This document shows positions 23,483 through 64,000 of a stretch of 64,000 bases of DNA, piece after piece. Each line of letters opens with the position of its first letter. Positions within the stretch are counted from its first letter, which is position 1. The position numbers were made by a program, and so were the translations under genes. The notes beneath the pieces were generated by a model, which saw only the letters and a list, made by a program, of their open reading frames with translations, did not search any database and was not told the DNA's origin. Origin of the DNA: Alphaproteobacteria bacterium (GTDB taxonomy: Bacteria; Pseudomonadota; Alphaproteobacteria; RF32; CAG-239); the NCBI GenBank assembly GCA_045643605.1, contig JAZULC010000018.1:53700-117699 (forward strand), read 5' to 3'.

Positions 23483-23546
23483 AATTTACATAAATTTAAT
23501 ATTTATAAAGTATAACTTTCCATATTATACGTATAAAACTGTAAAT

Positions 23547-45706: not shown

Positions 45707-45804
<98 letters not shown>

Positions 45805-45824
45805 ATTTGACAATTTAGGATTAG

Positions 45825-45854
45825 AATTTTATCCCAGAATTGTCCCAAGATTTT
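45825..45854 (+). repeat. Island-internal 30-bp repeat, left copy (candidate integrase arm-type site)
   Basis: AATTTTATCCCAGAATTGTCCCAAGATTTT matches AATTTTATCCCAAGTCTGTCCCAAGATTTT at 63615-63644 at 26/30 positions. It contains two TCCCA half-sites 10 bp apart. Confidence 0.5.
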
Positions 45855-46184: not shown

Positions 46185-47102
46185 ATGATGAAATCGGAAA
46201 AATCACAAAAACCTATTGTCAAAGAGAAAAGCAAAAGAGCCTTCAGCGCCTTCATAAATAATGTTTCTTGGTGGTGGAACGTAATAAATTTTGAGTTGGA
46301 TAATAGTTATATATATAAAAGAATTAAAACTGTTACGTATAAAAATGGGAAAACATCACAAATAATCACTCTTCCTAACGTACCCAGATGGAAAGATGTT
46401 ACCAGAGTACAAAAAGGTGCATATTTTGCCAAATTTTTAGCTGAAAGCAAAGAATTTTTGACCTTAAAACCATTTTCTTTGGATTTTACATATACATTAC
46501 ACGATAGATACTGTACAAACAAATTATCAGTGATACGGGATGAGTTCAGTAAAAAAATATATAATAATTTACGCCAGCATGGCAAACAACATATCGAGAT
46601 GGCGTATTGTATTGAAGGAAGAAGTAAAAGATTACACTGTCATGGTTTTATAGATAAAGAAAATTTGGGCGATTTTACGAATCTCTTGAAACAATCTGCT
46701 TGCTCCACTAGAAATGAATATAAAGAGATTAATTACAATAATATGCTTAAATTTTCTGAGTATTCTTATCAAAAAAGCGGTGGAAGTTATGGGTGGTACT
46801 GCTACATCCACAAAGGATCACACTCTGAAAATGCATTTCACCTTTCACATTCTTTATTGATTAGGATCCGAGATGAGTATGAAAAGCTTTATGAACAATA
46901 TATTGTAAGAATTAAACAACTGGAAGCAGAAGGTTTTAAAATACGTTACAAAGACGCTAAACAAAAAGAATATCATAAACGATTTAACATTTGGAAAGAC
47001 ATAGCAAGATTATATAAACAAACAAATACAATATTTAAATCATATATATCAAACACAAGTATTTATCATACGTATTTAATCAAACCACCACCGCTTATTT
47101 AA
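46185..47102 (+). CDS. Hypothetical protein, possible HUH-type Rep/relaxase (Inovirus Gp2/YfjJ-like?)
   Basis: 305-aa ORF. MAYCIEGRSKRLHCHGFI contains an H-C-H (HUH-like) motif, and a downstream WYCYIHK fits YxxK. The assignment is tentative. Confidence 0.45.
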   Translation: MMKSEKSQKPIVKEKSKRAFSAFINNVSWWWNVINFELDNSYIYKRIKTVTYKNGKTSQIITLPNVPRWKDVTRVQKGAYFAKFLAESKEFLTLKPFSLDFTYTLHDRYCTNKLSVIRDEFSKKIYNNLRQHGKQHIEMAYCIEGRSKRLHCHGFIDKENLGDFTNLLKQSACSTRNEYKEINYNNMLKFSEYSYQKSGGSYGWYCYIHKGSHSENAFHLSHSLLIRIRDEYEKLYEQYIVRIKQLEAEGFKIRYKDAKQKEYHKRFNIWKDIARLYKQTNTIFKSYISNTSIYHTYLIKPPPLI

Positions 47103-47210
47103 TATCTTATTATTGATAGTAAGCTATATTTTAGTTATTGCATATATCATTTTTGCAATTAAAATACAGACACGTAGTTACAATTAATATTATTTATGTC
47201 GAATAAATTA

Positions 47211-47519
47211 TTACGATTTTGATGCGAAAAAATTCAGAAGAATAGCATCATATCGTTTATTTTGGTTTCTTATTCTGGAGCTTAAAAAAGTAATCTGTGG
47301 TGTATGAGTTAAAACAAATTGAAATAGTTTGCATGAAGTACTCATTGATACAAGAACAGTTGTTTCATGTCCATAATACATAAACTGTTCATATGCTTTC
47401 TTTATGATTTCTTCTTTTCTTTTTTTTGAAACACCAAGTAGATTGATACAAGGACAAGAGGTTGAACTGTTAGAAGAATCTGTTGAAAATGAGTGAATAT
47501 ATGAATCAACCTCTTGCAT
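47211..47519 (-). CDS. Hypothetical 102-aa ORF of doubtful coding status
   Basis: It is the only ORF of at least 60 aa in an otherwise ORF-free ~970-bp stretch. No recognisable motifs or RBS were checked. Confidence 0.3.
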   Translation of the reverse strand: MQEVDSYIHSFSTDSSNSSTSCPCINLLGVSKKRKEEIIKKAYEQFMYYGHETTVLVSMSTSCKLFQFVLTHTPQITFLSSRIRNQNKRYDAILLNFFASKS

Positions 47520-48070
47520 TGTGGTTAAACCTATTAAAAAAATTGCCCTTGTACCTATATATAGAACTTAATTATTTTAGTGATTGTACCATTTATAAAA
47601 TTGGTACCAAGCAAATGTTTTTTATCTTCAAACTAAAATTTCGATGTTAGAAACAGACATCATTATAGAATCGTTTATTAAGGCTCACTGAGATAGTACT
47701 TCGATTTTTCATCATAAGTTAGATTTAGAATAATTTACCAGTGCACGCCCGATAGAACTGATAACCTCTGTGATATCCATATCTTAAAAATCCATAACAT
47801 ATAAGCAAAAGAAGTTTGTGTTATGTTATAGAACTTAATTTGATAAGTATCTTTCCCCATCCATCAACTTGCTACCAACATAAATGGTTTTAATCTATAG
47901 ATGGTTAAAGCTGAATGGATTGTATAAATAAGAGCTGAATAGCTTTTTGAAAGCCGCTGAGAGCATATTTTATTTTTTTGTATTGAGTACTACAAGAAAG
48001 AAAATAATCATCTATAGGAGCTTAAAAATACCGATGCTGATCTAAATATATCTAGAGCGAATGTATTTTA

Positions 48071-51000
48071 TCATTCTAGTGCTATTAGTTTCTTAATGAA
48101 ATCCTCATCATCTTGGAAAAATACATTATGATCTTCAAAATCTTCTTTATTCCAATCACCACGCCAATTAACTTGTCTAATGTTGGTATTGGAAATTATG
48201 GCTGAATTCAAAATCACGTTGTCATCATTCAAATCACGTTCTAATATTTTGATTCGCTTATGGAAAGTTATTTTGGTGTCGTTTTGACCATCCAAATTGC
48301 GAATACCCTTTGGATCAATAAAGGTTATATACTGTTTATTGTCTTTTACATGCCATAGAATAAAGTCTGGATAAAAATTTCCTTCCTCAAAGAAACCTAT
48401 ACCATTACCTCTACTACGATTTCTTAAGAGATAGAATTCATCATTGGCATATTTTTGTTTGTTTTTATTGTAATATTCCCTCAGCTGTTCCACAAACTTT
48501 GTTTCCCCATCATTCAGTGCCACAGGTTTAACTTCTATAACTTCATTGTTGTTCAATGACAATATCGGATTATATAAATGTGTTTGGAAGTACATTGACT
48601 TACCAAATGGAAAATCAAAATCTTTTAGTTGTCCTGACTTTATCAGATCAATAAGCTGACTGATCTTATGAATTACATCCATTGCGCTTTCTTGAATATA
48701 CACTCTGTACTCATCAATAAAGTTAGAATCTTCTGGCGTTAGCTCCTGATATACAAGTTTATCTTTTTCCCAATCTGATTTCTTGTAAAAATAAAATCTT
48801 TCACAGTATTTTTTCAATAAAGACACTATGATATCGTATGTTCTATCAAAGACGGAGAAGCTACTGAGATATAAATCTTCTCTTGGAATATACAAAGTGT
48901 ACCAATCATTGTGCTGGAATATTTCTTTTATCTCATCCACGCTCAAATTCAAGTTATACCAAGATTTCTCAGCCTTAAAATCTTGCATTTCCAGATATAT
49001 TTTATTCCAATCAATAAATGCTAAGTTATCGGCAGGAATTACATTTTCTTCTTTTTGATGTATAACGCCATCGGCAACACCTTTTGCTTTGATTGCTTGA
49101 ATCTTCGGATACCAATCAAGTACAACCTTGTTACGTGTTAAATATTCAAGATATTCCAGATTTGGTTTATCACCTTGTTTTTTGAAATCTAATCCTTCTT
49201 TTAATTTGATTACTTTGAGTTTTGTTTTCTTTGGCAAGTCACTCTTCAAAACAGGTATAATGTACTCTTCCTTTACATTACTACCAGATGGAAGACCTTC
49301 ATTTTCCAGATATTCCCTGAACTGACGCATATAATCTGCTCTAACACCGAATATATTAAGTGTTTCAAGATGTCGGATGATTCTGGCTTTATCATTTGAA
49401 AGATTCAGCGATTGAAGTGCAGATGTTCTTTTCAAACTGTTTTCATATCCTTTTAAGCGAACACCGCGTCCAAACAATTGAATAATTTCTGATCCTTCTG
49501 ATTTACCAATATTCATAAGTCCCATTGTGCTAACTCTAAAGCAATCCCAACCTTCGGTAAATTTTTTAGAACCAATCAAAACATTAACTGGAGAAGAGTT
49601 AGAAGTAATGCTGTCAAATACCGAACCGCTGAAATTCTTATCTGAAATAATCAATTCTTCGTGAGTTTTGCATAATTTAATCAATTCGGCACTATCACCA
49701 ACATTTATCAGACCAAATGCTTCATTCGTTCCAATTCTTAGTGAAATCTCTCCACTTGCACCACTGAGGTTTTCAACGTGTAATGAAGCTGCCGACTTTG
49801 CGTGGAATACCTTTTGCAGTATTTCATCATATAACTGCTTTCCAAACAACTCACCGACAAACGAAAAAGAATTGGAAAATATATCTTTTCCAGTGTTATC
49901 AAGCAATCCTGTCTTTCCTGACACTAAGATGTTTAATAATTCTATGCTTTGTCGTTCATCACGTACAAATTCTTCCAAAAACAGCAAAATATCTAAAACA
50001 TCGGATACAGCTCTTTTATTTTCCGTCCTAACTGCTGTAACCGTGCCACCGACAAATATCCATAACGGTTTTTCTATATTAAATGCTGCAATCTGTGACT
50101 TATTTTCTTCCCATACCTTGAGCTGCTGGAAATATGACAACAAACACCCAGTTAAATACTTCTTCCTGGTTAATTCAATGCTGTCGTCTGCTAGATTGAG
50201 GATTTTATAGTCTTTTCCATACCCATCACCATAAAACCACTTATACGAATAATCAAAAATTGTTGCTTTAGCATATTCGTTTTCTATATTTTCTTTGTTG
50301 GCTGCTTTGACCGCTTGTCCTAATGTGGCTGAATATTCAAAAGCAAAACCTTCGGTGGAAAGTCTATCTCTCTTTTCTTTCCATTCGTTACCCTGAGTAC
50401 CCTTATGTACTTCATCAATCAGCACCAAATTGTTGTTTTCAAAAGAATCTACGGATACGGTTTTTTCCTTACCTTCTTCTTTTAACTTAGAAATTTCAAT
50501 AATCTCAACGGTGTTAGCAGAAAACAACTGTCCAGCTTTTTTATCAAAGATCTCAGCACCAATTCTGGAAATATTAAAGTTTGCCAAATGTTGTTTAGAC
50601 AACCCTTCGTTCGGCGTAATAAGTAAGATTTTGTTCAAAGATCCTGTTTTCTTGTACTTCTCCATATAAAATCTGTATTGCAAGATGTTCATATGCATCA
50701 GCAGCGTCTTGCCAGAACCTGTGGCATTCCAAATAGCTATTTTGGATAAATCGGCTAATGTGTAATCTGGTATATCTATAAAATTGAGTGAACCTGACTT
50801 GAACTGATTTAATTCAGCAAGAAAACCTTCTTTATCATTGAAAAACTTATCTAGATATATTTCAACAAATAGCAAACAAAGATACTGGAAATACTTCCAT
50901 TTAATTACATCTTTGCGTTTTCCTTGCATTGCTTTGGTATGTTTGGTGATATTCATATCATAAGCAAGCAGAATGTCTTTATTTAATTTAGTAGACGTTT

Positions 51001-51190
51001 CAAATTGTTCGGTATCAACCAATCTTTTGTAGAAATAGCTGATTTGATTTTCATTCCACCCTTCTTTAACATCGGATAAAACTTTTGCAACAGATTCAAA
51101 ATCTTTGAAACCGATCTGATCAAGCATATAAGCATTGAGCATCAGCTTTTGTGCAAAAGGAATTTCCGTCTTTTTAATCTTCTTTGCCAT
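48071..51190 (-). CDS. ResIII-type SF2 helicase fused to a C-terminal PD-(D/E)xK nuclease (Type III Res-like restriction subunit)
   Basis: NATGSGKT Walker A, LIDEVHKG (DEVH box), QLFGRGVRL motif VI, and the C-terminal YPDFILWHVKDNKQYITFIDPKG (PD...DxK) at nt 48302-48373. The start ATG overlaps the upstream stop (TAATG). Confidence 0.85.
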   Translation of the reverse strand: MAKKIKKTEIPFAQKLMLNAYMLDQIGFKDFESVAKVLSDVKEGWNENQISYFYKRLVDTEQFETSTKLNKDILLAYDMNITKHTKAMQGKRKDVIKWKYFQYLCLLFVEIYLDKFFNDKEGFLAELNQFKSGSLNFIDIPDYTLADLSKIAIWNATGSGKTLLMHMNILQYRFYMEKYKKTGSLNKILLITPNEGLSKQHLANFNISRIGAEIFDKKAGQLFSANTVEIIEISKLKEEGKEKTVSVDSFENNNLVLIDEVHKGTQGNEWKEKRDRLSTEGFAFEYSATLGQAVKAANKENIENEYAKATIFDYSYKWFYGDGYGKDYKILNLADDSIELTRKKYLTGCLLSYFQQLKVWEENKSQIAAFNIEKPLWIFVGGTVTAVRTENKRAVSDVLDILLFLEEFVRDERQSIELLNILVSGKTGLLDNTGKDIFSNSFSFVGELFGKQLYDEILQKVFHAKSAASLHVENLSGASGEISLRIGTNEAFGLINVGDSAELIKLCKTHEELIISDKNFSGSVFDSITSNSSPVNVLIGSKKFTEGWDCFRVSTMGLMNIGKSEGSEIIQLFGRGVRLKGYENSLKRTSALQSLNLSNDKARIIRHLETLNIFGVRADYMRQFREYLENEGLPSGSNVKEEYIIPVLKSDLPKKTKLKVIKLKEGLDFKKQGDKPNLEYLEYLTRNKVVLDWYPKIQAIKAKGVADGVIHQKEENVIPADNLAFIDWNKIYLEMQDFKAEKSWYNLNLSVDEIKEIFQHNDWYTLYIPREDLYLSSFSVFDRTYDIIVSLLKKYCERFYFYKKSDWEKDKLVYQELTPEDSNFIDEYRVYIQESAMDVIHKISQLIDLIKSGQLKDFDFPFGKSMYFQTHLYNPILSLNNNEVIEVKPVALNDGETKFVEQLREYYNKNKQKYANDEFYLLRNRSRGNGIGFFEEGNFYPDFILWHVKDNKQYITFIDPKGIRNLDGQNDTKITFHKRIKILERDLNDDNVILNSAIISNTNIRQVNWRGDWNKEDFEDHNVFFQDDEDFIKKLIALE

Positions 51191-51981
51191 TATTCTGTCA
51201 CCGTTCCATCTTTAATATGATATTTTATCTTTTTCTTTTTACAAAAGCTTATTACTTGTTCGCTTAGTAAATTGTAAAATTCTTTATGTTGTTTATATTT
51301 TGATACTTCGGCATTATAATTGGTTCTTCCGAAAATTATTTTATCAACAAAAGATATTTTATCCAAGATCTGTTCTATATTTTGATCTATTAGGTTAGGT
51401 GTTGGATAAGGTTCCATACTTACCCACGTTTTACAGCCTTTAAGGTGTAAATTATAAAGAGCATTTAATCTTTCTTCATATCTTGCTGATCCTGGTTCAA
51501 ATTGCTCTCTATATTTCTCATCCAATGAAACCAAGGTAACACCGTACTCATTCTTCTTAGAATATTTGGATAATTCAATTGGTAACACACCTTTTGTTAG
51601 AACAGTACATTTAATATTTGCATTATTAAGTTTTTGTATAATTTTTAAGCTCATATCTTGAACTTCGTTGAATCCATACATAAAAGGATCTGATGAAAAA
51701 CAGAGATGTACTGATTTGATTTTATCCTTATACTTGGGAATTTCTTTATCAAGTAAATCCAAAGCATTTACAACTAATTTCGGTTCAAGCCATTCTTCAT
51801 AACTTTTAACTTTTCCAAACCTTTTAGCCATTAAAAAAGCATAGCAAGGATATTTACAACCATGTGCACAGCCTTGGATATGATTTATTGTATAATCACC
51901 ATACTCTACACCAGTTTTGTAAAGTAATGTTTTACGTTCAATATATCGAGTAACTTTTTTATCTATCATCTGACTAACCAT
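51190..51981 (-). CDS. Three-Cys-motif, radical-SAM-like protein (SplB/DUF5131-like TIM-barrel class), partner of TcmP
   Basis: YTINHIQGCAHGCKYPCYAF: the Cys residues at nt 51870-51844 are spaced CX3CX3C, one residue longer than the canonical CX3CX2C. 263 aa, with an 8-nt overlap with the TcmP-like gene. Confidence 0.7.
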   Translation of the reverse strand: MVSQMIDKKVTRYIERKTLLYKTGVEYGDYTINHIQGCAHGCKYPCYAFLMAKRFGKVKSYEEWLEPKLVVNALDLLDKEIPKYKDKIKSVHLCFSSDPFMYGFNEVQDMSLKIIQKLNNANIKCTVLTKGVLPIELSKYSKKNEYGVTLVSLDEKYREQFEPGSARYEERLNALYNLHLKGCKTWVSMEPYPTPNLIDQNIEQILDKISFVDKIIFGRTNYNAEVSKYKQHKEFYNLLSEQVISFCKKKKIKYHIKDGTVTE

Positions 51982-52810
51982 TCAATATATAATCAGCTAC
52001 CTTTTGTGCTAATCCCCAGGCTTTTTTTGATGGATTTGATACAGCAAAGCATAAAAGAAATAGAGGAGATTTTCTGGAATTATATAGTATTCTGTTTTTA
52101 TTTGATACAAATGGGAATTCTTGTTTTAATTTTTTCTGGATATATTGCACTAATTTATCTGTACTTTCCTTCACAACGTCCAATTCTCCGAACAAATTGC
52201 CTTGTGGACTTTCGCTGTACATTTCTTTTTCCCAGGAATCATCTCCAAACACCTGATTCAATTTATTTTTCCAACTCTCATCTATCTTTCCATCTCTTTT
52301 AAGCAATCTTGTTGTTGCAGAAAGAGGGAACAAATACCACAAATCTATGCTTTGTGTATTTTTTATCGCAGTTAAGACATCCCAGGAAACTTGCATAGCA
52401 CAAGGATCTAGAAACAATAAAGCTCGTGAAGCTTTCCAATCTATTTGAGAACATAATCTTTTGACCTCTGTTCCAGCATCTCCTTGAATTATATCAACCT
52501 TACTTGCTCTATCTGGATATTTAGTGGCAACAATCTTTCTCAGTTCTTGGCATTTATTTGGATCTAATTCTATAAAATAATAGTGATCAAATTCTTCTTT
52601 AGCACTCAAAGCTATTTGTACAGAGCCTTCTATATCAAAAGTTTCCCATTGATCTCCAATATCAATACTTCCTGTGCCAGCAAAAGCGTCTATATAAATT
52701 TTCTTAAACCGTTGCTTTTTTAGTGCCTGAACGTAAAAATTCAAATAATCTGAAAATATGTTTAACTTTTCAATTGTCCAACGCCCACCAAATTGTTGTA
52801 ATTGCGCCAT
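51974..52810 (-). CDS. tcmP: Three-Cys-motif partner protein TcmP-like (methyltransferase-fold-like motifs)
   Basis: FGGRWTIEKLNIFSDYLNFY...IYIDAFAGTGS...GSVQIAL...YYFIELD...LLFLDPC...DLWYLFP matches my recollection of the TIGRFAM TcmP family layout. It lies adjacent to a three-Cys protein, as that family is defined. Confidence 0.7.
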   Translation of the reverse strand: MAQLQQFGGRWTIEKLNIFSDYLNFYVQALKKQRFKKIYIDAFAGTGSIDIGDQWETFDIEGSVQIALSAKEEFDHYYFIELDPNKCQELRKIVATKYPDRASKVDIIQGDAGTEVKRLCSQIDWKASRALLFLDPCAMQVSWDVLTAIKNTQSIDLWYLFPLSATTRLLKRDGKIDESWKNKLNQVFGDDSWEKEMYSESPQGNLFGELDVVKESTDKLVQYIQKKLKQEFPFVSNKNRILYNSRKSPLFLLCFAVSNPSKKAWGLAQKVADYILNG

Positions 52811-52812
52811 CT

Positions 52813-55800
52813 CTACACATCCTTTACATCAAACATTCTTTTGAGAAATTCGGCTTCGGTTAGACGAACTTTCCACGTTTCATCACCTTTACGAAGGTTT
52901 TCAAGGTTGTTGTTGCCATTCACATAAATTGTATCAAATTCCATATCCAGTGTAGAATAGTTTTGTTTTTCAAACCAATTATCCAGAGTTTGATTATCTA
53001 CCACACTGGTATCACGCCACAAGACAAGAGTCTTTTCTCCAGCACGTGTTCTGCCCTCAATAGCAACAATTTCTTTGGATTTACGAATGCTTTCCACATT
53101 CAGACCAATTAAATAGTTAAATGTTTCTACCAAATCCACTTTGACAGTTTTTGTTTCTCCATCACGAGTGATTTTCATTTCATAATCAAACGGATGCTCA
53201 AAGTCAGAAACGTTTAATAAAGAACCTTGTGTTTCCAAATCCATCATATAGTTCAAGATGTATTCTTCTTTGATTTCTTTATTCTGTGGTTTGCTCAACA
53301 AGTCGCTTTGCTGTGCACTGCGTTCCACTTTCAAGTTATCTAAGGCATCTTCATATGATTCCAAACGGATGTATTTGAAACAATGGCTTGAACCCTTACG
53401 AGAAACAGGCTTACCGTCTTTCCAGTCTTCAGAATAAATGACTTTTTCAATACGAGGTTTAGTAACTAAATCAAAGTAGTTACCCATTTCAACCATAATG
53501 TATTTTCTTTTTCCATCATCTTGACGATTTGAGTTAATAACTGCGTGACCAGTCGTTCCAGAACCCGCAAAGTAATCCAGAATATATTCTGATGGCTGCA
53601 AGTTAATAAAATCTGCCACAGTATAAACACTTTTTACAGTATTTAAAGAAATGTCATAATTTACAAAATTTTTCATCATTTCTTTAACAAATTCTGTTCC
53701 ATACTCAGGATTGGCGTAAAGAGGTGAAACCCAAGTGGTTTTTGGTATTTCTCTTTCATAGGCAGGAGTATATATGGCATTATTTTTTGCAATATAAGTA
53801 TTACATTCGTTGGATACTCTAGGATATTCTCTTTGCCATACCAATTTTGTGCCATCATCCATTTTTGGTAGAACAAACACAAATCCTAAACGTGTATATT
53901 TTTCTTCTAATTGTTTAACATATAAATCATCAAATATTCCTGTTTCTTTTGAATATATCTTTTGGTATTCGTCTTTTTCAATTGTAAAAACGCTATTATT
54001 CTTAATTAACATAGGGTAATATCTATATGGACGTTCTTCTCTTCTGGAATTCGTGCCTGTCCTTTTCAAGGGTACCATTGAAGATTTTTTATCACGCTTT
54101 TCTACCCTTAATTCTCCTATACTTTCTTTATTTTTTGCGTAAATCACGTGGAAATCTGATATTTTATTGTTTTTATCCGCAACTCTTCCTTGAGGATTAC
54201 AAATTACAGTGATTATTGATATATAATTATCTTTTGAAAAAACATTGTTATTTATATAGCATAAGTTATTAAGTTCTATATCGTCAATTGCTTGATAGAT
54301 TAAACCATCATCAGACATCAACTTCTTTGCAATAGTCAATCTATTTTCATAAAGAGAATTCCAAGAACTGTCTTTATAATCGTTTTTATATATAATTGGA
54401 GATGATGCTGTATTATACGGGGGATCAATGTATATGCACTTTACCCGTTCTTTGTACTTTTCTTGCAACAAATTCAATGCTTGGAAGTTTTCACTATGAA
54501 TCAACAAACCATCACATTGCTTGTCAAAATCATCAATAGATGCCAACAACTTGTATTTGAATTCGGTATCAAAAAATGCCGTGTCTAACACCAAAAACGG
54601 ATTATTTTTCAAGAAATCTATGGTCAATTTACCTGAATATTCTTTGATTTCATCAATAGCAAACAGTTTGATCCATTCTTCTTTTTGTTTTTCATTAGCC
54701 ACAATTGCTGGATACAGCTCTTCTGGCACTCTATCAAGGGTAATGCAGTAGTTCGTTTCCAAAACAAATTTCTTTTTGAGCCATATTTTCTTTTGAAAGT
54801 TCTCCAATGATGATAAAAATTGAATAATCTTACGAGCAACACGGCGTAAAACCTTAATTTTACCAAGATATTGTTCAACTTTAGCTTCTGTTTCGCTGTC
54901 AATATCATCCAAGTGCATAATTTCGTTTTTGATGTAAAAATCAAGCTCTCGGTTCAAGAACTTGCCCAAATCCTTATGAATAAAGTAATCAAACGTGCTT
55001 TTGGCAGTGAAATTATTGATGTGCTTTAACAAAACAGTCATTCTGTTCTTTTCGGAGCCTGTTAATTTACTTAATTCACCGAAAATAGGCATTAAAACAG
55101 CATTTTTAAGCAATACGTCTACAGATTGTTTGTTTAATTCTTCTTGTTTAGGAGCTCCTTCCTCAGGCAAATAACTAAATAAAATAATAAATTCACCATT
55201 CTCTAATCTTACAGGATGTTCTTCTAATAGTTTGAAGCGTCTGTTTTTATCATCTTTGTTATTATTTTGTTCTGTTGTTGCAGAAACCACCTCAAAACGA
55301 ACTTTGTAATTACCTGCTTTAAATGTATAATTTGTTAGTGTCTCTCCTGATTTTATATAATATTGGTCTGCATTTGCCCAATGGAGCTTAACTTCTTCAC
55401 CCTCATACGGAAGAGCATACACACCTTCTTTGTAACGGCGAAGAGACATAAAGTCACCTTCGGAATAATAACGTTTAAAAAAGTTATAAAGGTCAGAATA
55501 AATCCCGTTCTCAACTTTTTCGGCATCAAACACAGAGGTTAATTTTGCCTTAAGCTCTTTTACTTTTGGCATAGTATCTGGATCAACACCCAGATCTTTT
55601 GCTGCTTTTATGGATTTATCTAAATCTTCTTGAATGGACTTATTATCACTGGATACGTATTTTGCCAATCCTTCTTTGACTTGTGGAAGCAAATCATTAT
55701 CAATGAATTGCGTTACTTCCTGTGACTTTAGATTCATAATCCGATACAAACCAAAATCCAGATCATTACGATCAAGCTGAAAAATTTCTCTTAATTTTCC

Positions 55801-55824
55801 TTGTAATTCTTCAAAAGCAGACAT
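52813..55824 (-). CDS. Site-specific DNA methyltransferase, beta-class N6A/N4C (Type III Mod-like), with a ~440-aa uncharacterised N-terminal region
   Basis: Motif IV IYIDPPYNT (DPPY at nt 54415-54426) precedes motif I DYFAGSGTTGHAV (nt 53557-53571), with ~280 aa (a putative TRD) between them. AAGAGG RBS upstream. Confidence 0.9.
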   Translation of the reverse strand: MSAFEELQGKLREIFQLDRNDLDFGLYRIMNLKSQEVTQFIDNDLLPQVKEGLAKYVSSDNKSIQEDLDKSIKAAKDLGVDPDTMPKVKELKAKLTSVFDAEKVENGIYSDLYNFFKRYYSEGDFMSLRRYKEGVYALPYEGEEVKLHWANADQYYIKSGETLTNYTFKAGNYKVRFEVVSATTEQNNNKDDKNRRFKLLEEHPVRLENGEFIILFSYLPEEGAPKQEELNKQSVDVLLKNAVLMPIFGELSKLTGSEKNRMTVLLKHINNFTAKSTFDYFIHKDLGKFLNRELDFYIKNEIMHLDDIDSETEAKVEQYLGKIKVLRRVARKIIQFLSSLENFQKKIWLKKKFVLETNYCITLDRVPEELYPAIVANEKQKEEWIKLFAIDEIKEYSGKLTIDFLKNNPFLVLDTAFFDTEFKYKLLASIDDFDKQCDGLLIHSENFQALNLLQEKYKERVKCIYIDPPYNTASSPIIYKNDYKDSSWNSLYENRLTIAKKLMSDDGLIYQAIDDIELNNLCYINNNVFSKDNYISIITVICNPQGRVADKNNKISDFHVIYAKNKESIGELRVEKRDKKSSMVPLKRTGTNSRREERPYRYYPMLIKNNSVFTIEKDEYQKIYSKETGIFDDLYVKQLEEKYTRLGFVFVLPKMDDGTKLVWQREYPRVSNECNTYIAKNNAIYTPAYEREIPKTTWVSPLYANPEYGTEFVKEMMKNFVNYDISLNTVKSVYTVADFINLQPSEYILDYFAGSGTTGHAVINSNRQDDGKRKYIMVEMGNYFDLVTKPRIEKVIYSEDWKDGKPVSRKGSSHCFKYIRLESYEDALDNLKVERSAQQSDLLSKPQNKEIKEEYILNYMMDLETQGSLLNVSDFEHPFDYEMKITRDGETKTVKVDLVETFNYLIGLNVESIRKSKEIVAIEGRTRAGEKTLVLWRDTSVVDNQTLDNWFEKQNYSTLDMEFDTIYVNGNNNLENLRKGDETWKVRLTEAEFLKRMFDVKDV

Positions 55825-55833
55825 TTCAACCTC

Positions 55834-58641
55834 TTAAATTAGCTTCCATCTAAATGTAAATAATTGTTCTTGCGTTATTTTAGCGTTCATATGTTGACGC
55901 AGATTCTCAATGAGTTCTTTACGTTCCAACTCAATTTCATCTTCAACATCAAAGATATTCTGCCTTAAGCGCCTTTGTTTGCGCTCCAAAGCCGCAATCT
56001 CTTCTTCTAACACAACTTTTCTTTCTATATTTTCTACAGCCCGAACTTCTCTTTGTAAAGACTTAATTTTACTTTTTGTATCTCTTAATTCCTTCTCGGC
56101 TGCATATAACTTATCGTCGGTATAACGATCGATTTTATCACTTTCTTCTTGGAAAAATGCATTATTTCTGTTTTCGGAAAGCCGTTTTGTCTTCTCAATG
56201 TTGTCGTTTTGAACTTTGGTCAGGTTCTTTTCTTCAATATCAAGAAGATCACGTTCTTTTGAAACGCTGGCAACATCCAATTTGATCATTTCTTCTAACG
56301 TTTCGGAATCAACATTGTTCTGGAAATTATCAATACCAGACAGAACCAAATACTCCTCCTCTTCAAAGCTCTTAATCTTGAGTAAATGGCACGTACACCA
56401 ACCAGTTATACGCTCATCACACATTTTTTGAAGATAACTGTGTTTCCGTGGACTATTTGTTACATTGAAAACAAGCTCATCCAAATTGCTTGTATCGCTG
56501 TTTTTAGCCGTTGATAATATTTTTTCTCCAAGCGGATGGGACAATCTCAGGATTACATCATTACTTAAATCAATATGTTTATCAGTTTGGGTTATAAAAT
56601 AGTACTTCTGGCACATTCCTAATTGTTTGTTTTTCAAGGTAAATGACAACTCATAATCATCAAAATCACCGTCATCCTTGAGAATCGTCTTAGCCAAACG
56701 CCAAAACATTTCCTGCCGTTCGCTAAGCTGTATTTTTGTTTCTTCCAAACTGACTTTTAATCTTTGATGAACCGATGCGTCAAATTCATTCAACAGTTTC
56801 TGCTTTGTCTGGCGCATTTTCTTATCAATGCTTTCTTCCATTTCTTTTTGTAAAGCATCAAAAGCAGCTTCTATCTCTTTGTTAGTTCGGCAGGTTTGAT
56901 AGATATTGAGGATCTTCTTTTCAAAGTCGACACCATCTTCTATACTTCCAAGAATTTCGTCTGAAGCTCCAAAAACACCTTCAAACAGTTTGAATTTTTC
57001 GCTTAATAACTCAAAGACTCGCCGATCTGCTGGGTTTTTCTTGTTTACAAAGTTGATTACCACAACATCAAACTTTTGTCCGTAACGATGACATCTTCCA
57101 ATTCTTTGTTCAACACGCTGAGGATTCCACGGTAAATCATAGTTTATAAGCAAAGAACAGAACTGCATATTAAGACCTTCTGCACCAGCTTCAGTGGCAA
57201 TCATAATCTCAGCTTTGTTTTTGAACTCATCCATAAGATCATTACGTTTTAATTTGTTGCCACCGTAGAATTGTACAATCTTACCGTTATAGCCGTGAGC
57301 ACTTAAGTATTCGAAGAGGTACTTCTGTGTACGTCGGCTTTCTGTAAATATTAACGCTTTTCTAGGAGCTCCCATCTTTTCCATTTCAGCAAAACCAATT
57401 TCAATGGCTTTTAATAATTCAACTGTTTTGTTATCATATTTGATCGTACTTGCTAATTTTAAATAACCTTCAATCTGTTCAATTTCGTGATCCAATTGCT
57501 CCATATCTATTGATGAATCTTCTTTTTCAACAGTTTCTTCAATTTCTTCTGGAGATTGTTCATCATCAAGATCAGCTTCAGCAATCAAATCCTCAAGTAT
57601 TTCATCTTCTTGTTCAGTTTGTTGACCTGCTTTTAACTTCTTTAATCTTTCCAACATGGTAGAAAACGTACCGTATATGGCATTTGATGAAGAAGCCAGC
57701 AATTTATACAGAATCAGTGATATTAAATGTCTTTGTCTTGGTGGTATAGCATACAAATTTTCATTTTTTAGAAATTGAGCAACCTCTTCATATAGCTTTT
57801 GTTCGTCCTGTGAAGGTACAAATGGAAACGTAATCGGTTTTCTTTGTGTGTATCTAATATATTCCAGCACATTGGAACGTAGCGTTCTTCTGCAGAAACA
57901 TTGCAATCTTTTCTTTAAGGATTCATAACCAACAGCAGACGTAACATATTGCATTCTAAATGATCTGTCATCACCGAATATATTATCATCAATCAAACTG
58001 CTTAAACCATATAATTCCATTAAAGAGTTTTGCAAAGGTGTAGCTGTCAATAGAAGTTTTTTACGATCTTTCAATGCACGAGATATCACTTGTCCAGTTT
58101 TATTGCTTTCTTTATATACGTTACGTAGCTTATGCGCTTCATCAAAAACCACCAGATCCCAAGCTACGGTTATTAAATCCTGTTCAATTTTTGCAGCCAT
58201 ATTATAGGATATTATAATCACTTTATCCGTTAAGGACAACAATTTGGGAATATAATTCTTTCTTTCCAGAATAACGGCATCCAAACTAAACTTCTCTTCT
58301 AATTCAGTTTTCCATTGCTCTCTGAGTGACGCTGGACATATTACCAGTAGATGACGTTTCCTTTCTGCCCAGTACTGACATAAGACAATACCAGCTTCAA
58401 TAGTTTTTCCGAGACCAACTTCATCAGCCAAAATTGATCCTTTAGAAAGTGGTGATTGCAAAGCAAAGGAAGCAGCTTCAATCTGATGAGGATTCAAATC
58501 GACTTGTGCGTCCATCAAAGCCTGAGAAAGACGTCCTAAATTATTATCCTTGTTAAGCCGTGTCAATTCATAAGCAAAATATTTAGCTTGTTGTTTAGTT
58601 AAAATATCTTTATGTAACAGATTTTGAACCATAGTAATCAT
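55834..58641 (-). CDS. SNF2-family helicase with a ~390-aa C-terminal extension whose last ~150 aa look coiled-coil-rich (DISARM DrmD-like)
   Basis: ADEVGLGKTIEAG Walker A, VVFDEAHKLRN, LLLTATPLQNSL and DLPWNPQRVEQRIGRCHRYGQ motifs. The longest ORF starts at a TTG at 58677; ATGs at 58641 and 58632 are more plausible. Confidence 0.9.
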   Translation of the reverse strand: MITMVQNLLHKDILTKQQAKYFAYELTRLNKDNNLGRLSQALMDAQVDLNPHQIEAASFALQSPLSKGSILADEVGLGKTIEAGIVLCQYWAERKRHLLVICPASLREQWKTELEEKFSLDAVILERKNYIPKLLSLTDKVIIISYNMAAKIEQDLITVAWDLVVFDEAHKLRNVYKESNKTGQVISRALKDRKKLLLTATPLQNSLMELYGLSSLIDDNIFGDDRSFRMQYVTSAVGYESLKKRLQCFCRRTLRSNVLEYIRYTQRKPITFPFVPSQDEQKLYEEVAQFLKNENLYAIPPRQRHLISLILYKLLASSSNAIYGTFSTMLERLKKLKAGQQTEQEDEILEDLIAEADLDDEQSPEEIEETVEKEDSSIDMEQLDHEIEQIEGYLKLASTIKYDNKTVELLKAIEIGFAEMEKMGAPRKALIFTESRRTQKYLFEYLSAHGYNGKIVQFYGGNKLKRNDLMDEFKNKAEIMIATEAGAEGLNMQFCSLLINYDLPWNPQRVEQRIGRCHRYGQKFDVVVINFVNKKNPADRRVFELLSEKFKLFEGVFGASDEILGSIEDGVDFEKKILNIYQTCRTNKEIEAAFDALQKEMEESIDKKMRQTKQKLLNEFDASVHQRLKVSLEETKIQLSERQEMFWRLAKTILKDDGDFDDYELSFTLKNKQLGMCQKYYFITQTDKHIDLSNDVILRLSHPLGEKILSTAKNSDTSNLDELVFNVTNSPRKHSYLQKMCDERITGWCTCHLLKIKSFEEEEYLVLSGIDNFQNNVDSETLEEMIKLDVASVSKERDLLDIEEKNLTKVQNDNIEKTKRLSENRNNAFFQEESDKIDRYTDDKLYAAEKELRDTKSKIKSLQREVRAVENIERKVVLEEEIAALERKQRRLRQNIFDVEDEIELERKELIENLRQHMNAKITQEQLFTFRWKLI

Positions 58642-58732
58642 CTTTTTGTTAAACCTGTTAAATAGTATAAAAGACAATCTTCTAAAACATTATTAATATT
58701 TGCCATAGAAATGTATTTTTGTAATTAATAGC

Positions 58733-58760
58733 TTGACAATTATCAACGTTTGTTTATCAT
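58733..58760 (+). promoter_or_regulatory. Candidate sigma70 promoter for the divergent 159-aa ORF
   Basis: TTGACA (58733-58738), 16-nt spacer, TATCAT (58755-58760). A TAGGAGA RBS lies upstream of the ATG at 58826. Confidence 0.35.
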
Positions 58761-58825
58761 AAGCCCTGTAAGTGAATTTAACCAAACTTGTCCCACTTCA
58801 AGCGGACTAAATAGGAGATTTTAAT

Positions 58826-59305
58826 ATGACTATACATTTTTTCGCTAAGCCTGATGAGCCTTGCACTCAAGATTTAGAAACATTTTTCAAAAATTTTGAC
58901 TTAATTCAACAGCATAAACAGCTAATTTTAGATACACCAGAATACTACAACATTCGCATTTCGGGATGTGGCGTTTTTGCTCTTTATATGCCATCGATAA
59001 GGCTTTCTATTGGTGAATTATTAAAGCTATGGAATGACACGGTATGGAAACAAGATGATAAATATTTTTATTGCATCACAGGCTCGCCTTTAAGCGGTGG
59101 TAATTCTTCAAAATACTGGTCACCTAAAACAGGATTTAAGAGTATGGAAACGCATACATTCAGCACACAAATTCGCAATGCATTGTGGTTACTTCAAACG
59201 GGTTCAACTGAAATTCAAAGCCGATGTACCGCAATTGATATCCCGAATCGAGATATCTCAAAACTTACGATAAATGATTTAATTGATGGTCTTAAAAAGC
59301 CGTAA
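58826..59305 (+). CDS. Hypothetical protein, divergent from the SNF2-MTase operon
   Basis: 159-aa ORF with a good RBS (AGGAGA) and a downstream hairpin terminator. I recognise no family. Confidence 0.5.
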   Translation: MTIHFFAKPDEPCTQDLETFFKNFDLIQQHKQLILDTPEYYNIRISGCGVFALYMPSIRLSIGELLKLWNDTVWKQDDKYFYCITGSPLSGGNSSKYWSPKTGFKSMETHTFSTQIRNALWLLQTGSTEIQSRCTAIDIPNRDISKLTINDLIDGLKKP

Positions 59306-59333
59306 CCATTAATTTTAATTTCAATATACAATC

Positions 59334-59370
59334 AAAAATGAATAAGAAGTGTTAAACTTATTCATTTTTT
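59334..59370. terminator. Bidirectional hairpin terminator between convergent genes
   Basis: AAAAATGAATAAG-(10 nt)-CTTATTCATTTTT: a 13-bp stem flanked by A and T runs. Confidence 0.65.
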
Positions 59371-59410
59371 TGATAACTTATTGAAAAATCAAGAGTTTTA
59401 TATTAGTTTT

Positions 59411-60397
59411 TTATTTCTTCTCTATTTTCTTTTCAATCGTTTTGAGCGATTCTAAATAATCTTTTTCAGCAGCACTCAAGGTTTTGGCTTGATATTTTTG
59501 ATATTCCTCTTTGGCTTTGTTGACGGCTTTTTGGTGAGATACAGAACCTGCACCTTGCAACAAATCTTCTCCTGTTGCTGTTAAAATCTTGTCTAAATGC
59601 TCAGCCCAATCTTTCATCGTCATTGCCTGATGGCGTTCCGCTTGGCGTTCAGCAAAATCTAAATACCCTGAAACAATTTGTCCCATCGTGCGCAGTTCTT
59701 TTTCATCTAAATAATTTTTAGCAATGACAGCATCTGATAAATGTGGTTCTTGCCCCTTAAAAGTTGTTAATCCCATAAATTCTTTTTGTGCATCAGCACG
59801 ACTGTAAATAATTTCAGCAGCCGTTTGGTGACTAACCGCATAATGGATCTTGTTTTGAACTTTTTTGAAGAACTCAACAGAGGTATCAGCATTCGGATCA
59901 TAATCTATACTGGTCGCATATATATCTAAAACCTGACGATAAAAAACCTTTTCGGATGCTCTAATATCCCGAATACGTTCCAAAAGTTCGTGCCAATATC
60001 CACCACCTCCGAGATTCTTCAAACGATCATCATCCATCGCAAAGCCTTTAATCATATATTCTTTTAAGATTTGCGTTGCCCAAATACGAAATTGCGTTCC
60101 ACGTAAAGATTTAACACGATAGCCAACGGAAATAATCACATCCAGATTGTAATATTTTACATTATAATCTTTGCCGTCAGAGGCAGTTGTCAAGAAATCC
60201 TTTACAACTGAATCTTCAACTAATTCCTGCTCTTTGAAGATATTTTGGATGTGAGAACTGATATTTTGTTTGGTTGTCTGCAGCAATTCGGCAATCTGTG
60301 CCTGATTGAGCCAAACCGTATCATTATCAATTTTGACATCAATTTTAGTTTTGCCATCTTGAGTTTGATAAATGATAATATTGTTTTCTTCAGTCAT
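59411..60397 (-). CDS. rhuM: RhuM-family (virulence/Fic-DOC-associated) protein
   Basis: The N-terminus IIIYQTQDGKTKIDVKIDNDTVWLNQAQIAELLQTTKQNISSHIQNIFKEQEL is the characteristic RhuM HTH region. 328 aa. Confidence 0.85.
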   Translation of the reverse strand: MTEENNIIIYQTQDGKTKIDVKIDNDTVWLNQAQIAELLQTTKQNISSHIQNIFKEQELVEDSVVKDFLTTASDGKDYNVKYYNLDVIISVGYRVKSLRGTQFRIWATQILKEYMIKGFAMDDDRLKNLGGGGYWHELLERIRDIRASEKVFYRQVLDIYATSIDYDPNADTSVEFFKKVQNKIHYAVSHQTAAEIIYSRADAQKEFMGLTTFKGQEPHLSDAVIAKNYLDEKELRTMGQIVSGYLDFAERQAERHQAMTMKDWAEHLDKILTATGEDLLQGAGSVSHQKAVNKAKEEYQKYQAKTLSAAEKDYLESLKTIEKKIEKK

Positions 60398-60407
60398 ATA
60401 CGTTCTC

Positions 60408-60854
60408 CTAATCTTTCAAACCCAATTCTTTACGGATTTGTTCTTTGAAATCCAGAATTTTTTTGCGGTTTTTATCTGATGTTTTTTCCCAATGCTTTTT
60501 ATAACTTTTTGCGCTTTCCATAATATCTTCAAACAATGTATAAAACTGCTCTCTAATCTTTACTGTTGCCCAAATTGTTTTAGGTTCTAATGCATTATAA
60601 AAATCTCTAGTATCTTCACTGATATACTTGTTACTTTTATATGTCCGAGCATCTTTTTCATAACGCATTATAAAATCATACATTTGTTCATAAATTTCTT
60701 CACGTTTATCGCGTATATGAACACTATCAGCGCGTTTATTGGTGAAGTAACTTTGGCATAAATTCAACAACCATCCTATAACAACACCAAGCAAGGTGAA
60801 TGTACCACCAATTATTACCGTATGATTTTCCTGATAAAATGTATTCCAATTCAT
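60408..60854 (-). CDS. Small single-TM protein, paralog 3 of a tandem triplet
   Basis: 148 aa. N-terminal TM helix (VIIGGTFTLLGVVIGWLL), IRDKREEIYEQ block and C-terminal IRKELGLKD. Confidence 0.6.
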   Translation of the reverse strand: MNWNTFYQENHTVIIGGTFTLLGVVIGWLLNLCQSYFTNKRADSVHIRDKREEIYEQMYDFIMRYEKDARTYKSNKYISEDTRDFYNALEPKTIWATVKIREQFYTLFEDIMESAKSYKKHWEKTSDKNRKKILDFKEQIRKELGLKD

Positions 60855-60884
60855 ATTCTAATCCCTTATACCAAGTTCTTTACG
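60843..60884. repeat. Conserved 42-bp gene-junction repeat, copy A
   Basis: ATTCCAATTCATATTCTAATCCCTTATACCAAGTTCTTTACG matches 61242-61283 at 41/42 positions, with a 399-bp period. It spans one paralog's stop and the next paralog's start. Confidence 0.9.
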
Positions 60885-61253
60885 CATTTGTTTCTTTAAT
60901 TTTTTTATTACATCAATGGTTTCAGAAGAAATTTCCCAGTGAGTTAAAGGTAAATCATTAAATATCCATAAAATTTTTTGCGATCCGTACATATTCAATA
61001 AAATTTCTATATGTTCAATATCGAATGGCTTTTTTTGAAATTTTTTATCAATTTTAGACAAGATCCACGAATTATATATTGGCATAAGGATAGTCAATAA
61101 TTGTTCGTAGACTTCTTCTCGTTTGTCCCGTATATGTTTTCTATCTTCTATAATAGATTTACGCCATTCAATAAACCACGTAAAACCAGCAGTAAGAAAA
61201 GCACCAAGAATAATACCAAAAGTTTGAGAAGATAAAAATTCATTCCAAGTCAT
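60858..61253 (-). CDS. Small single-TM protein, paralog 2 of a tandem triplet
   Basis: 131 aa. TM helix (FGIILGAFLTAGFTWFI), IRDKREEVYEQ block and C-terminal MRKELGIRD. Confidence 0.6.
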   Translation of the reverse strand: MTWNEFLSSQTFGIILGAFLTAGFTWFIEWRKSIIEDRKHIRDKREEVYEQLLTILMPIYNSWILSKIDKKFQKKPFDIEHIEILLNMYGSQKILWIFNDLPLTHWEISSETIDVIKKLKKQMRKELGIRD

Positions 61254-61283
61254 ATTCTAATCCCTTATACCAAGTTCTTTACG
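61242..61283. repeat. Conserved 42-bp gene-junction repeat, copy B
   Basis: See copy A. The single difference is G versus T at position 8. Confidence 0.9.
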
Positions 61284-61649
61284 AATAGCTTCAATTAATA
61301 CATCTTCGTGATTTCCTGTTTTATGTACAATATCATTATATATGTCTTTAATATTTTGAGTAGCATAAACATTCACATAGGGATACAAATCAGCGACCCA
61401 CGTATCCAAATCTGTTTGATATGTTGGGAAAGATTTTGATTTATTTAATTCAAAATAAGTACGAAGAATCCTACAATATGTTTCTTCTCTTTTTCTTTTA
61501 AGATATAACTCATCATCTCTTGTTTGTTTTTTAAGTTCTTGTTCTTTAATCATTTCAAATTGTGTAACCATTGTCTTATAGCTAGCAAAACTACCGATAG
61601 CTGCACCTATCAATCCAGAAGTTGCCGAAATAACGATTTCTATAAACAT
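61257..61649 (-). CDS. Small single-TM protein, paralog 1 of a tandem triplet
   Basis: 130 aa. TM helix (IVISATSGLIGAAIGSFA), KRKREETY block and C-terminal IRKELGIRD. Confidence 0.6.
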   Translation of the reverse strand: MFIEIVISATSGLIGAAIGSFASYKTMVTQFEMIKEQELKKQTRDDELYLKRKREETYCRILRTYFELNKSKSFPTYQTDLDTWVADLYPYVNVYATQNIKDIYNDIVHKTGNHEDVLIEAIRKELGIRD

Positions 61650-63614: not shown

Positions 63615-63644
63615 AATTTTATCCCAAGTCTGTCCCAAGATTTT
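63615..63644 (+). repeat. Island-internal 30-bp repeat, right copy (candidate integrase arm-type site, in the int upstream region)
   Basis: AATTTTATCCCAAGTCTGTCCCAAGATTTT. See the left copy at 45825-45854. Confidence 0.5.
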
Positions 63645-63768: not shown

Positions 63769-63839
63769 CGCATTCGTAATGCGTGGGTCAGGTGTTCAAA
63801 TCACCTAATCGGCACCAGATTTTTCAAGGGTTTTGAGAG
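63769..63839 (+). repeat. attR-type direct repeat (displaced tRNA-Thr 3' fragment)
   Basis: A 71-bp copy of 45734-45804 with an A at 63800. It lacks the tRNA 5' half, so it is not a functional tRNA. Confidence 0.9.
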
Positions 63840-64000
63840 TTTTCCAGAATCCTTTTATTTTGCTCGGATACTTTTACTTATATTTTCCTCAAATATTAAT
63901 GGCTTGACATGAGCTATATTGTAGCAAAATATAATTTTTATAAAAAAATATTGCAAACTTTGTTTAGTAGAATAAAATCTACAACAAATAAGCAAGTGAG

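Follow-up and report, generated by a model that had tools for sequence, protein, structure and literature searches.

Introduction

Several described bacterial defence systems resemble in part a block of five genes found in a 64,000-nucleotide stretch of DNA from an Alphaproteobacteria bacterium (NCBI GenBank assembly GCA_045643605.1, contig JAZULC010000018.1, positions 53,700 to 117,699 of the forward strand), which is referred to below as the window. The block is predicted to encode an SNF2-family ATPase, a DNA methyltransferase (Mod), a TcmP family protein, a radical S-adenosylmethionine (SAM) protein and a helicase-nuclease (Res). Among the closest described systems are those of Type III restriction-modification (R-M), in which two unmethylated sites in inverse orientation are required for ATP-dependent cleavage and only one strand is methylated. 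The target-recognition domain of beta-class methyltransferases lies between motif IV and motif I, and restriction systems selected for new specificities typically exchange this domain and keep the scaffold around it conserved. Defence genes are also known to be embedded in larger systems, the examples that underlie the principle of guilt-by-embedding being PrrC in Type I R-M and BrxU in BREX.

The phage defence candidate (PDC) families of PADLOC were nominated by guilt-by-embedding in the study of Payne et al. 2024 (bioRxiv 10.1101/2024.01.29.577857), where seven candidates embedded in Hma operons were validated and 145 further PDCs remained candidates. TcmP is not discussed in the text of that study, and Type III-like hosts were not screened in it. 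A later study validated some of the PDCs, including the RhuM-domain family PDC-S05, and not PDC-M41. Embedding is a known phenomenon, and the pair of TcmP and a three-cysteine partner is already listed as the candidate PDC-M41. A radical-SAM-type partner, which the PDC-M41B model barely detects, Type III-like hosts, and a cargo slot between mod and res appear not to have been covered before. We found no functional study in the literature for TcmP, DUF5131, PDC-M41 or the radical SAM partner family, and no paper that gives TcmP a function, in accordance with an initial annotation of the window, which knew of no assigned function for the pair.

The same annotation proposed that all five genes form one undescribed defence system. 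The comparative analysis described here suggests a different view: the locus is probably an SNF2/Mod/Res restriction module in which TcmP and the radical SAM protein form a separable cassette of two genes, carried in a slot between mod and res.

Results

The SNF2-Mod-Res core recurs without the TcmP cassette

The five genes occupy positions 48071-58677 of the window, all on the minus strand, within an 18-kb island at a tRNA-Thr gene. According to the open reading frame (ORF) listing, the SNF2 gene comes first (55834-58677, minus strand; 947 amino acids from a TTG start) and is followed by mod (52813-55824, minus strand; 1003 amino acids), the TcmP gene (51974-52810, minus strand), the radical SAM gene (51190-51981, minus strand; 263 amino acids) and res (48071-51190, minus strand; 1039 amino acids). 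We refer to SNF2, mod and res as the core, with SNF2 as its first and res as its last gene, and to TcmP and the radical SAM gene, in this order, as the cassette or simply the pair. Read from the sequence, SNF2 and mod are 9 nt apart, with a GAGG ribosome-binding site in the gap, and mod and TcmP are 2 nt apart; TcmP overlaps the radical SAM gene by 8 nt (ATGGTTAG), and the radical SAM gene overlaps res by 1 nt (TAATG). The GC content at third codon positions (GC3) is 0.20-0.24 in the two cassette genes versus 0.28-0.31 in the core genes.

A profile search with Res yielded 80 metagenome loci, whose Res proteins, compared over the best tblastn segment, are 43-70% identical to that of the window; with a single exception the values lie within 43-52%. 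An SNF2 gene is found upstream of mod in 31 of the 37 loci that have at least 3.2 kb of upstream sequence, and no homologue of DrmA or DrmB occurs within 10 kb in any of the 80 loci. Mod and res adjoin tightly at 40 of 62 junctions, and co-directional cargo of over 400 bp fills the remaining 22; the frequency of the tight junctions, together with that of the SNF2 gene, makes the core a conserved unit. The cargo between mod and res is heterogeneous. In L087-L165 it includes Fic with a helix-turn-helix gene (six loci), Schlafen AlbA_2 proteins with HATPase_c_4, DUF3800 proteins, an AAA_21/AAA_15 ATPase, PLD-like, UvrD and RhuM proteins, and a protein of 937 amino acids (L160:4486-7299; here and below L with a number denotes a surveyed locus). 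Cargo is also present at the junction of SNF2 and mod in 7 of 34 loci. Judging from these gene arrangements, the SNF2-associated family has a variable cargo slot at its Mod-Res junction; we found no description of such a slot in this Type III-like family in the literature.

The TcmP and radical SAM genes fill the Mod-Res slot in a single surveyed locus, L086, that is, at 1 of the 62 junctions. Three relatives of the window are informative in this respect. L167, with SNF2, TcmP, radical SAM and Res proteins 98%, 97%, 93% and 94% identical to those of the window, has the pair. L166 (Res 71%, SNF2 72%, Mod 65% identical) lacks it, and there mod and res are separated by 14 nt. In L086 the pair is present and the core proteins are 67-70% identical to those of the window; its radical SAM protein, at 74.5%, is among the closest to the window protein, and its TcmP is 50% identical. 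The TcmPs of a DISARM locus (55% identical to the window TcmP) and of a stand-alone pair (53%) are closer than this, so that a single ancestral insertion of the pair in the Res clade is not favoured. The distance of the L086 TcmP points to a scattered presence of the pair, probably reflecting more than one acquisition or a cassette swap. Within the Res clade, the cassette may have been swapped, gained twice independently, or gained once and later lost. The mod gene of L086 is itself divided between two overlapping ORFs (730 and 288 amino acids; L086:2970-5977), for which decay, a frameshift, phase variation or an error of assembly could be responsible.

These data do not uphold the proposal that the five genes are one undescribed system, as the SNF2-Mod-Res core recurs alone and the pair is facultative, being rare among the Mod-Res junctions and missing from L166. 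The initial annotation had itself named two outcomes that would speak against its proposal, and both were observed, wholly or in large part. The pair fails to co-vary with the three core genes, given its distribution and the divergence of the L086 TcmP relative to the core of that locus. PADLOC does hold models for all five genes, but they are separate ones: DrmD, MTase_III, PDC-M41A, PDC-M41B (a weak match) and REase_III. The five-gene order recurs in L086 and L167, and the other 61 of the 62 Mod-Res junctions lack the pair.

The TcmP pair occurs in many genomic contexts

A profile search for TcmP in species-representative genomes gave 80 loci, which five contig loci brought to 85, and in these the genes around TcmP were clustered. 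TcmP in the species-representative loci is at most 53% identical to that of the window. It is followed by a three-cysteine partner in about 74 of the 85 loci. The partner is of the radical SAM type in about 41 loci, where it is roughly 63-75% identical to the window protein, and of the DUF5131 type in 33. The two types are 21% identical and differ in the spacing of their cysteines (CX3CX3C versus CX6CX2C); a true DUF5131 partner scores 326 bits with Pfam DUF5131 and 401 bits with PDC-M41B.

In most of the 85 loci the pair occurs without any mod, res or SNF2 gene, and most of the surveyed pairs have no methyltransferase gene in the same predicted operon or within two genes on either side. Where there is no Type III neighbour, the genes beside the pair are a mixture of housekeeping and defence genes, the latter including SoFic, PDC-S04, PDC-S09, AbiE, Type II R-M, GmrSD-like, TIR, LmuB, Type I restriction endonuclease (REase) and PDC-S41. 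A copy of the pair on a Nostoc plasmid adjoins BREX-1. Matches to TcmP in tblastn searches are rare both in phage records (5 of 50,697) and in plasmid records (13 of 72,556), and a phage or plasmid origin of the pair is therefore not supported.

Other loci combine the pair with methyltransferase genes in various orders. L071 has mod, TcmP, DUF5131 and res (PDLC03647), and L008 and L011 have TcmP, radical SAM, mod (PDLC03632) and a res-like gene. In L019-L028, a small gene is followed by genes for a TcmP-like protein of 379 amino acids (PDC-M30A), TcmP, the radical SAM protein, Mod (PDLC03645), a ResIII protein of 960 amino acids and AIPR/AbiU, the last of which closes the cluster in three of nine loci. 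This cluster recurs across Clostridia and Muribaculaceae (for example, L020:8527-18470), with 72-97% identity between loci. Finally, L001-L003, contig loci outside the 80 genomes that represent one system from three samples, contain a C5 methyltransferase, DrmD, TcmP, the radical SAM protein, an N6 methyltransferase, Res, DrmA (1078 bits) and a DUF1998 protein (DUF1998/MZB in L001). They are a true class 1 DISARM system with an embedded TcmP and radical SAM pair.

A TcmP homologue is also encoded on the Sinorhizobium meliloti plasmid pSymA (L170; SMa2243, NC_003037.1, about 1256384-1257223), beside the validated defence helicase Hna (SMa2245). SMa2243 was reported to be upregulated together with Hna in a nolR+ strain.

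The core proteins are of SNF2 and Type III-like families

The SNF2 protein contains GLGKT at residue 88, DEAH at 179 and QRIGRCHRYGQ at 524, and matches the Pfam domains SNF2-rel_dom and Helicase_C. The listed start codon is TTG; an ATG located 12 codons downstream, at 58641, is at least as likely a start. The PADLOC match is to DrmD (PDLC02619, 637 bits), and the NCBIfam model DISARM_DrmD_b gives a score of 642, under its cut-off of 950. PADLOC matches to BrxHI/BrxHII and DpdE are weaker and of the SNF2 family level only.

Mod has DPPY at residue 467 ahead of FAGSG at 752, which is the beta-class order. It matches Pfam N6_N4_Mtase and PADLOC MTase_III (PDLC03646, 747 bits), and its relatives among Protein Data Bank (PDB) sequences are Mbo45V, the Mod subunit 6k0w and the Mod of EcoP15I. 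All 21 of its PADLOC matches are to MTase_III, MTase_II or orphan-methyltransferase models, and none is to DrmMI. By these motifs and matches, Mod is predicted to be a Type III-like beta-class N6-adenine (or N4-cytosine) DNA methyltransferase. Its target-recognition domain corresponds to residues 480-750 approximately (53575-54387, minus strand), between motif IV and motif I. The Mod proteins of the window and L167 (L167:5397-8378) are 74% identical overall; identity is only 20-28% over residues 480-750 or so and 88-100% over most of the rest. The alignment thus identifies a predicted target-recognition domain that is swapped between two loci otherwise 93-98% identical, suggesting a recent change of specificity.

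Res carries GSGKT at residue 158, DEVH at 259 and PD...DPK at 941-961, motifs that are invariant in 19 homologues of 48-71% identity. Matches to Pfam ResIII and PADLOC REase_III (PDLC03654, 646 bits) agree with its prediction as a Type III-like superfamily 2 (SF2) ATPase that has a PD-DxK nuclease at its C-terminus. The search retrieved over 6,400 homologues. PDB sequences gave no match, not even to the Res of EcoP15I.

TcmP and its radical SAM partner resemble nucleic-acid enzymes in fold

TcmP scores 192 bits with TIGR04474 (cut-off 53) and 303 bits with the PADLOC model PDC-M41A (PDLC04635). The family comprises about 5,300 clusters at 50% identity. The motifs DAFAGxG, FIE and LDP are invariant. 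An AlphaFold model of the window protein (predicted local distance difference test score, pLDDT, 86.7) has its best structural matches in the PDB to RlmJ and DUF519 proteins, with E values from 5e-9 to 9e-9 and template modelling (TM) scores of about 0.45-0.5. RlmJ is the methyltransferase that forms m6A2030 in 23S rRNA. TcmP shares with RlmJ and DUF519 the SAM-binding motifs, namely DAFAGxG, an acidic residue after strand 2, and D111. It differs from them in that the DPPY of amino-methyltransferases is replaced by DP(Y/C)A (DPCA in the window), and it is distant from them, with TM scores of only about 0.45-0.5 and a sequence identity of 11-14%. The model thus places TcmP in the class I SAM-methyltransferase fold, of RlmJ-like type, with methyl transfer as its putative activity.

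The partner passes the Pfam Radical_SAM threshold (44.6 bits, cut-off 29.5) and falls under that of DUF5131 (24.6 bits, cut-off 28.9). Its match to PDC-M41B is weak (25.8 bits), as are the NCBIfam matches to the PA0069 and Rv2578c families and to rSAM_mob_pairB. The cysteines C38, C42 and C46 form a CX3CX3C motif (GCxHGCKYPC; CAHGCKYPC in the window) that is invariant in 25 sequences. The canonical radical SAM motif CX3CX2C is not matched, the window protein having one residue more. More than 7,700 homologues exist, and the identity is 66-74% among the 118 listed when two near-identical relatives of the window are excluded.

A structural model of the partner (pLDDT 87.9) finds as its best PDB match in Foldseek the spore photoproduct lyase 4fhc (E 1e-7, TMq 0.66), with further radical SAM enzymes likewise among the top matches. 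Spore photoproduct lyase is a radical SAM enzyme of DNA repair. The fold match agrees with the weak similarity to PA0069 and Rv2578c and with the classification of RadicalSAM.org, where DUF5131 and spore photoproduct lyase are neighbouring subgroups. The lyase and the window protein share a partial TIM-barrel radical SAM fold and differ in length (340 amino acids in the lyase versus 263 in the window protein). The window protein is further set apart from spore photoproduct lyase, PA0069, Rv2578c and DUF5131 by its CX3CX3C motif and by its invariable pairing with TcmP. A search of PDB sequences with the radical SAM profile gave nothing, and Foldseek comparison with viral structures retrieved generic phage radical SAM proteins only.

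Together, the profile matches and motifs uphold the domain assignments of the initial annotation, that is, a DrmD-like SNF2 protein, Type III-like Mod and Res, TcmP, and an adjacent three-cysteine radical-SAM-like protein. Its layout of five co-directional genes, with their junctions and motifs, agrees with the ORF listing and the reading of the junctions.

The island and its other genes

The block lies in a tRNA-integrated island, as had been noticed from the sequence: a tRNA-Thr gene (anticodon CGT; 45707-45782, plus strand; ARAGORN and Rfam) is the integration site, a 75-nt direct repeat bounds the island on the left (45734-45808) and on the right (63769-63843) with 97% identity between the copies, and a tyrosine integrase gene is present (62365-63585, minus strand; Pfam Phage_integrase, 100 bits, and NCBIfam recombinase families). 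The tRNA was the only match in an Rfam scan of the window. A scan of 47500-59400 for promoters and terminators gave counts no higher than in shuffled sequences. A second repeat, of 30 nt and 87% identity, is located near both ends of the island (45825-45854 and 63615-63644), its two copies lying on opposite sides of the 75-nt att repeat. It might represent an arm site of the recombinase or be left over from tandem integration.

Just upstream of the SNF2 operon is a RhuM-family gene (59411-60397, minus strand; Pfam Virulence_RhuM, 372 bits; PADLOC PDC-S05, 578 bits), a separate single-gene defence candidate. A PDC-S05 representative with the RhuM domain was protective in E. coli B in the later validation study of PDCs. 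In L121, a RhuM gene fills the Mod-Res slot. Further upstream, three small paralogous genes arranged in tandem (148, 131 and 130 amino acids; 60408-61649, minus strand) are 26-29% identical to each other, all end in RKELG(I/L)(R/K)D, and have a 65-nt repeat at two of their junctions (60836-60900 and 61235-61299). They have no match in Pfam, NCBIfam or PADLOC, and the same is true of the island ORFs of 305, 102 and 159 amino acids (46185-47519; 58826-59305). The 159-residue ORF points away from the SNF2 operon, and the two have their upstream region in common. A giant ORF of 2465 amino acids (23427-30824, plus strand), located in the chromosomal part of the window, has no NCBIfam match.

Discussion

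From the gene content, architecture, distribution and fold similarities described above we infer the enzymatic activities and the defence role of the locus as follows. Mod would methylate host DNA, its exchangeable target-recognition domain determining the sites; by analogy with Type III R-M biology, one strand of an asymmetric site would carry the methyl group. The same analogy suggests that a Mod-Res complex would search DNA at the expense of ATP and that the Res nuclease would cut unmethylated DNA. The SNF2 ATPase, a usual and non-obligatory partner, may translocate along or remodel DNA, or help with sensing or loading, as its relatives suggest. The pair may bind SAM and carry out radical chemistry on DNA or RNA as an independent, co-regulated second layer of defence; it is co-transcribed and translationally coupled with the core and so shares its regulation and mobility, and the core can exist without it. 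Since both proteins are predicted to use SAM and have folds like those of nucleic-acid enzymes, SAM-dependent radical chemistry on nucleic acid is the activity that we consider most likely; our confidence in any specific chemistry is low.

All surveys covered the best 80 loci per scan with a simple ORF caller and fixed phmmer/BLAST thresholds, and included several short contigs. Some points weigh against the separability of the pair from Type III-like modules. The pair directly adjoins a Type III-class mod gene in 18 of the 80 genomes, with Mod proteins of at least four PADLOC subfamilies and in several gene orders, a recurrence that exceeds the expectation from generic co-location in islands and might reflect a functional connection with Type III-like systems. 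In L019-L028 the pair has co-diverged with its neighbours (identity of 75-97% for the radical SAM and 72-96% for the Res-like proteins) and looks stably integrated with its Type III-like module. The five-gene block is intact in a different flanking context in L167, at 93-98% identity, and all five genes are translationally coupled, which would fit a tighter association of the pair with the core. The same points, together with the RlmJ-like and spore-photoproduct-lyase-like folds suited to nucleic-acid chemistry, can be taken to favour one integrated five-gene system as proposed in the initial annotation, where the pair would install or process a second, non-methyl DNA mark, Res would cut unmarked DNA, and SNF2 would be a sensor or translocase. 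It is the repeated recruitment beside Type III mod genes that leaves this explanation a small probability. Yet 61 of 62 Mod-Res junctions in the Res family, and the locus L166 with a Res 71% identical, are without the pair; the 40 tight junctions indicate that the core works as a unit on its own; unrelated cargo occupies the same slot elsewhere; and most of the 85 pair loci have no mod, res or SNF2 gene, some of the pairs standing beside unrelated defence genes (Type I REase, LmuB, GmrSD-like, TIR). It is unlikely as well, if less so, that the pair is a nucleic-acid-directed radical enzyme with a new chemistry functionally tied to Type III-like Mod subunits, be it a non-methyl base modification or a radical-based effector on DNA or RNA, as the chemistry could be. 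Such a tie would explain both the recruitment beside at least four Mod subfamilies and the co-divergence with one of them and, if true, would provide restriction-modification with a second layer, of epigenetic or effector nature.

The enrichment beside mod, in the orders Mod-pair-Res, pair-Mod-Res and SNF2-pair-Mod, is strong, both proteins are predicted to bind SAM, and one copy is next to BREX-1 on a Nostoc plasmid. This might indicate an accessory of SAM-dependent, methylation-based systems such as Type III R-M and DISARM, not a stand-alone effector, which guards against phage anti-restriction (SAM depletion or inhibition of Mod) or tunes Mod and Res. However, with most surveyed pairs lacking a methyltransferase in the operon or within two genes of it, and with no sign of a sensing domain in the sequence, this purely conjectural idea is more doubtful than either of the preceding ones. 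We assign the lowest probability to a pair that has no role in defence, being a mobile module of DNA or RNA repair or of housekeeping modification, or a selfish cassette that settles in permissive junctions. Its appeal comes from the closest solved folds, which are those of a DNA repair enzyme for the radical SAM partner and of an rRNA methyltransferase for TcmP, from the many stand-alone pairs among housekeeping genes, and from the presence of COG1533 genes among those horizontally shared in gut microbiota. It is countered by the repeated location of the pair in or beside R-M, DISARM, BREX, Lamassu, GmrSD-like and TIR genes, and by the fact that the same embedding pattern led to seven validated defence cassettes. 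On balance, the reading that probably holds is a restriction module with a separable cassette in its Mod-Res slot.

The locus should accordingly be read as a modular stack, an SNF2-associated Type III-like system with a cargo slot, and not as a new five-gene machine. Two leads emerge from this. One is the SNF2-Mod-Res triad, which is widespread and in which the role of SNF2 is our conjecture. The other is the pair of TcmP and the radical SAM protein, abundant and highly conserved, both folds being of nucleic-acid-acting type. At about 1.6 kb the cassette is small, and it is found by itself as well as embedded; it is thus an easy target for cloning and nucleoside mass spectrometry.

With regard to described systems, the likeness of the SNF2 and methyltransferase genes to class 1 DISARM was confirmed in part: DrmD is the best match of the SNF2 protein in both PADLOC and NCBIfam, and an adenine-type methyltransferase is encoded next to it, but Mod matches no DrmMI model. 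The true DISARM locus L001 embeds the same kind of TcmP and radical SAM pair. In contrast to class 1 DISARM, no homologue of DrmA, DrmB (DUF1998) or DrmC (PLD) was found in the island of the window, in line with the earlier remark that DrmB and DrmC are absent; given this, the absence of a DrmMI match and the score of DrmD_b under its cut-off, membership in DISARM was rejected. BREX, Dnd-Ssp and Dpd, to which the architecture had also been judged a misfit, were rejected on similar grounds, as PADLOC found none of their signature genes (PglZ and BrxC; DndA-E and SspA-D; DpdA-C) among the five genes or their island neighbours.

Type III R-M of the EcoP15I type is matched by the core in its beta-class Mod with a central target-recognition domain, in the SF2 ATPase motifs and C-terminal PD-DxK nuclease of Res, in the position of mod upstream of res, and in the exchange of the target-recognition domain between close relatives. 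Unlike those systems, the window Mod has an N-terminal extension of about 430 amino acids, Res has no sequence match to solved structures, and SNF2 is a third gene in 31 of 37 relatives. In addition, mod and res of the window share a strand and an operon but are separated by two unrelated genes, whereas they are adjacent in 40 of 62 relatives. The cassette, for its part, is comparable to the PADLOC candidates PDC-M41 and PDC-M30 (TcmP-like with DUF5131): its TcmP is PDC-M41A at 303 bits, and it is a co-directional two-gene unit inside a known kind of defence system, which is how these candidates were defined. It differs from PDC-M41 in its partner, which is not DUF5131 (21% identity; 25.8 versus 401 bits with PDC-M41B) and has CX3CX3C in place of CX6CX2C cysteines, and in its Type III-like host system. 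Lastly, as with defence genes embedded in R-M, BREX and Hma operons, a multi-gene system here has a variable slot whose cargo differs between relatives and overlaps with known or candidate defences, such as Fic, RhuM (PDC-S05) and AAA_21; what distinguishes it from known embedding sites is that the slot lies between mod and res, or in fewer cases between SNF2 and mod, in a Type III-like family associated with SNF2.

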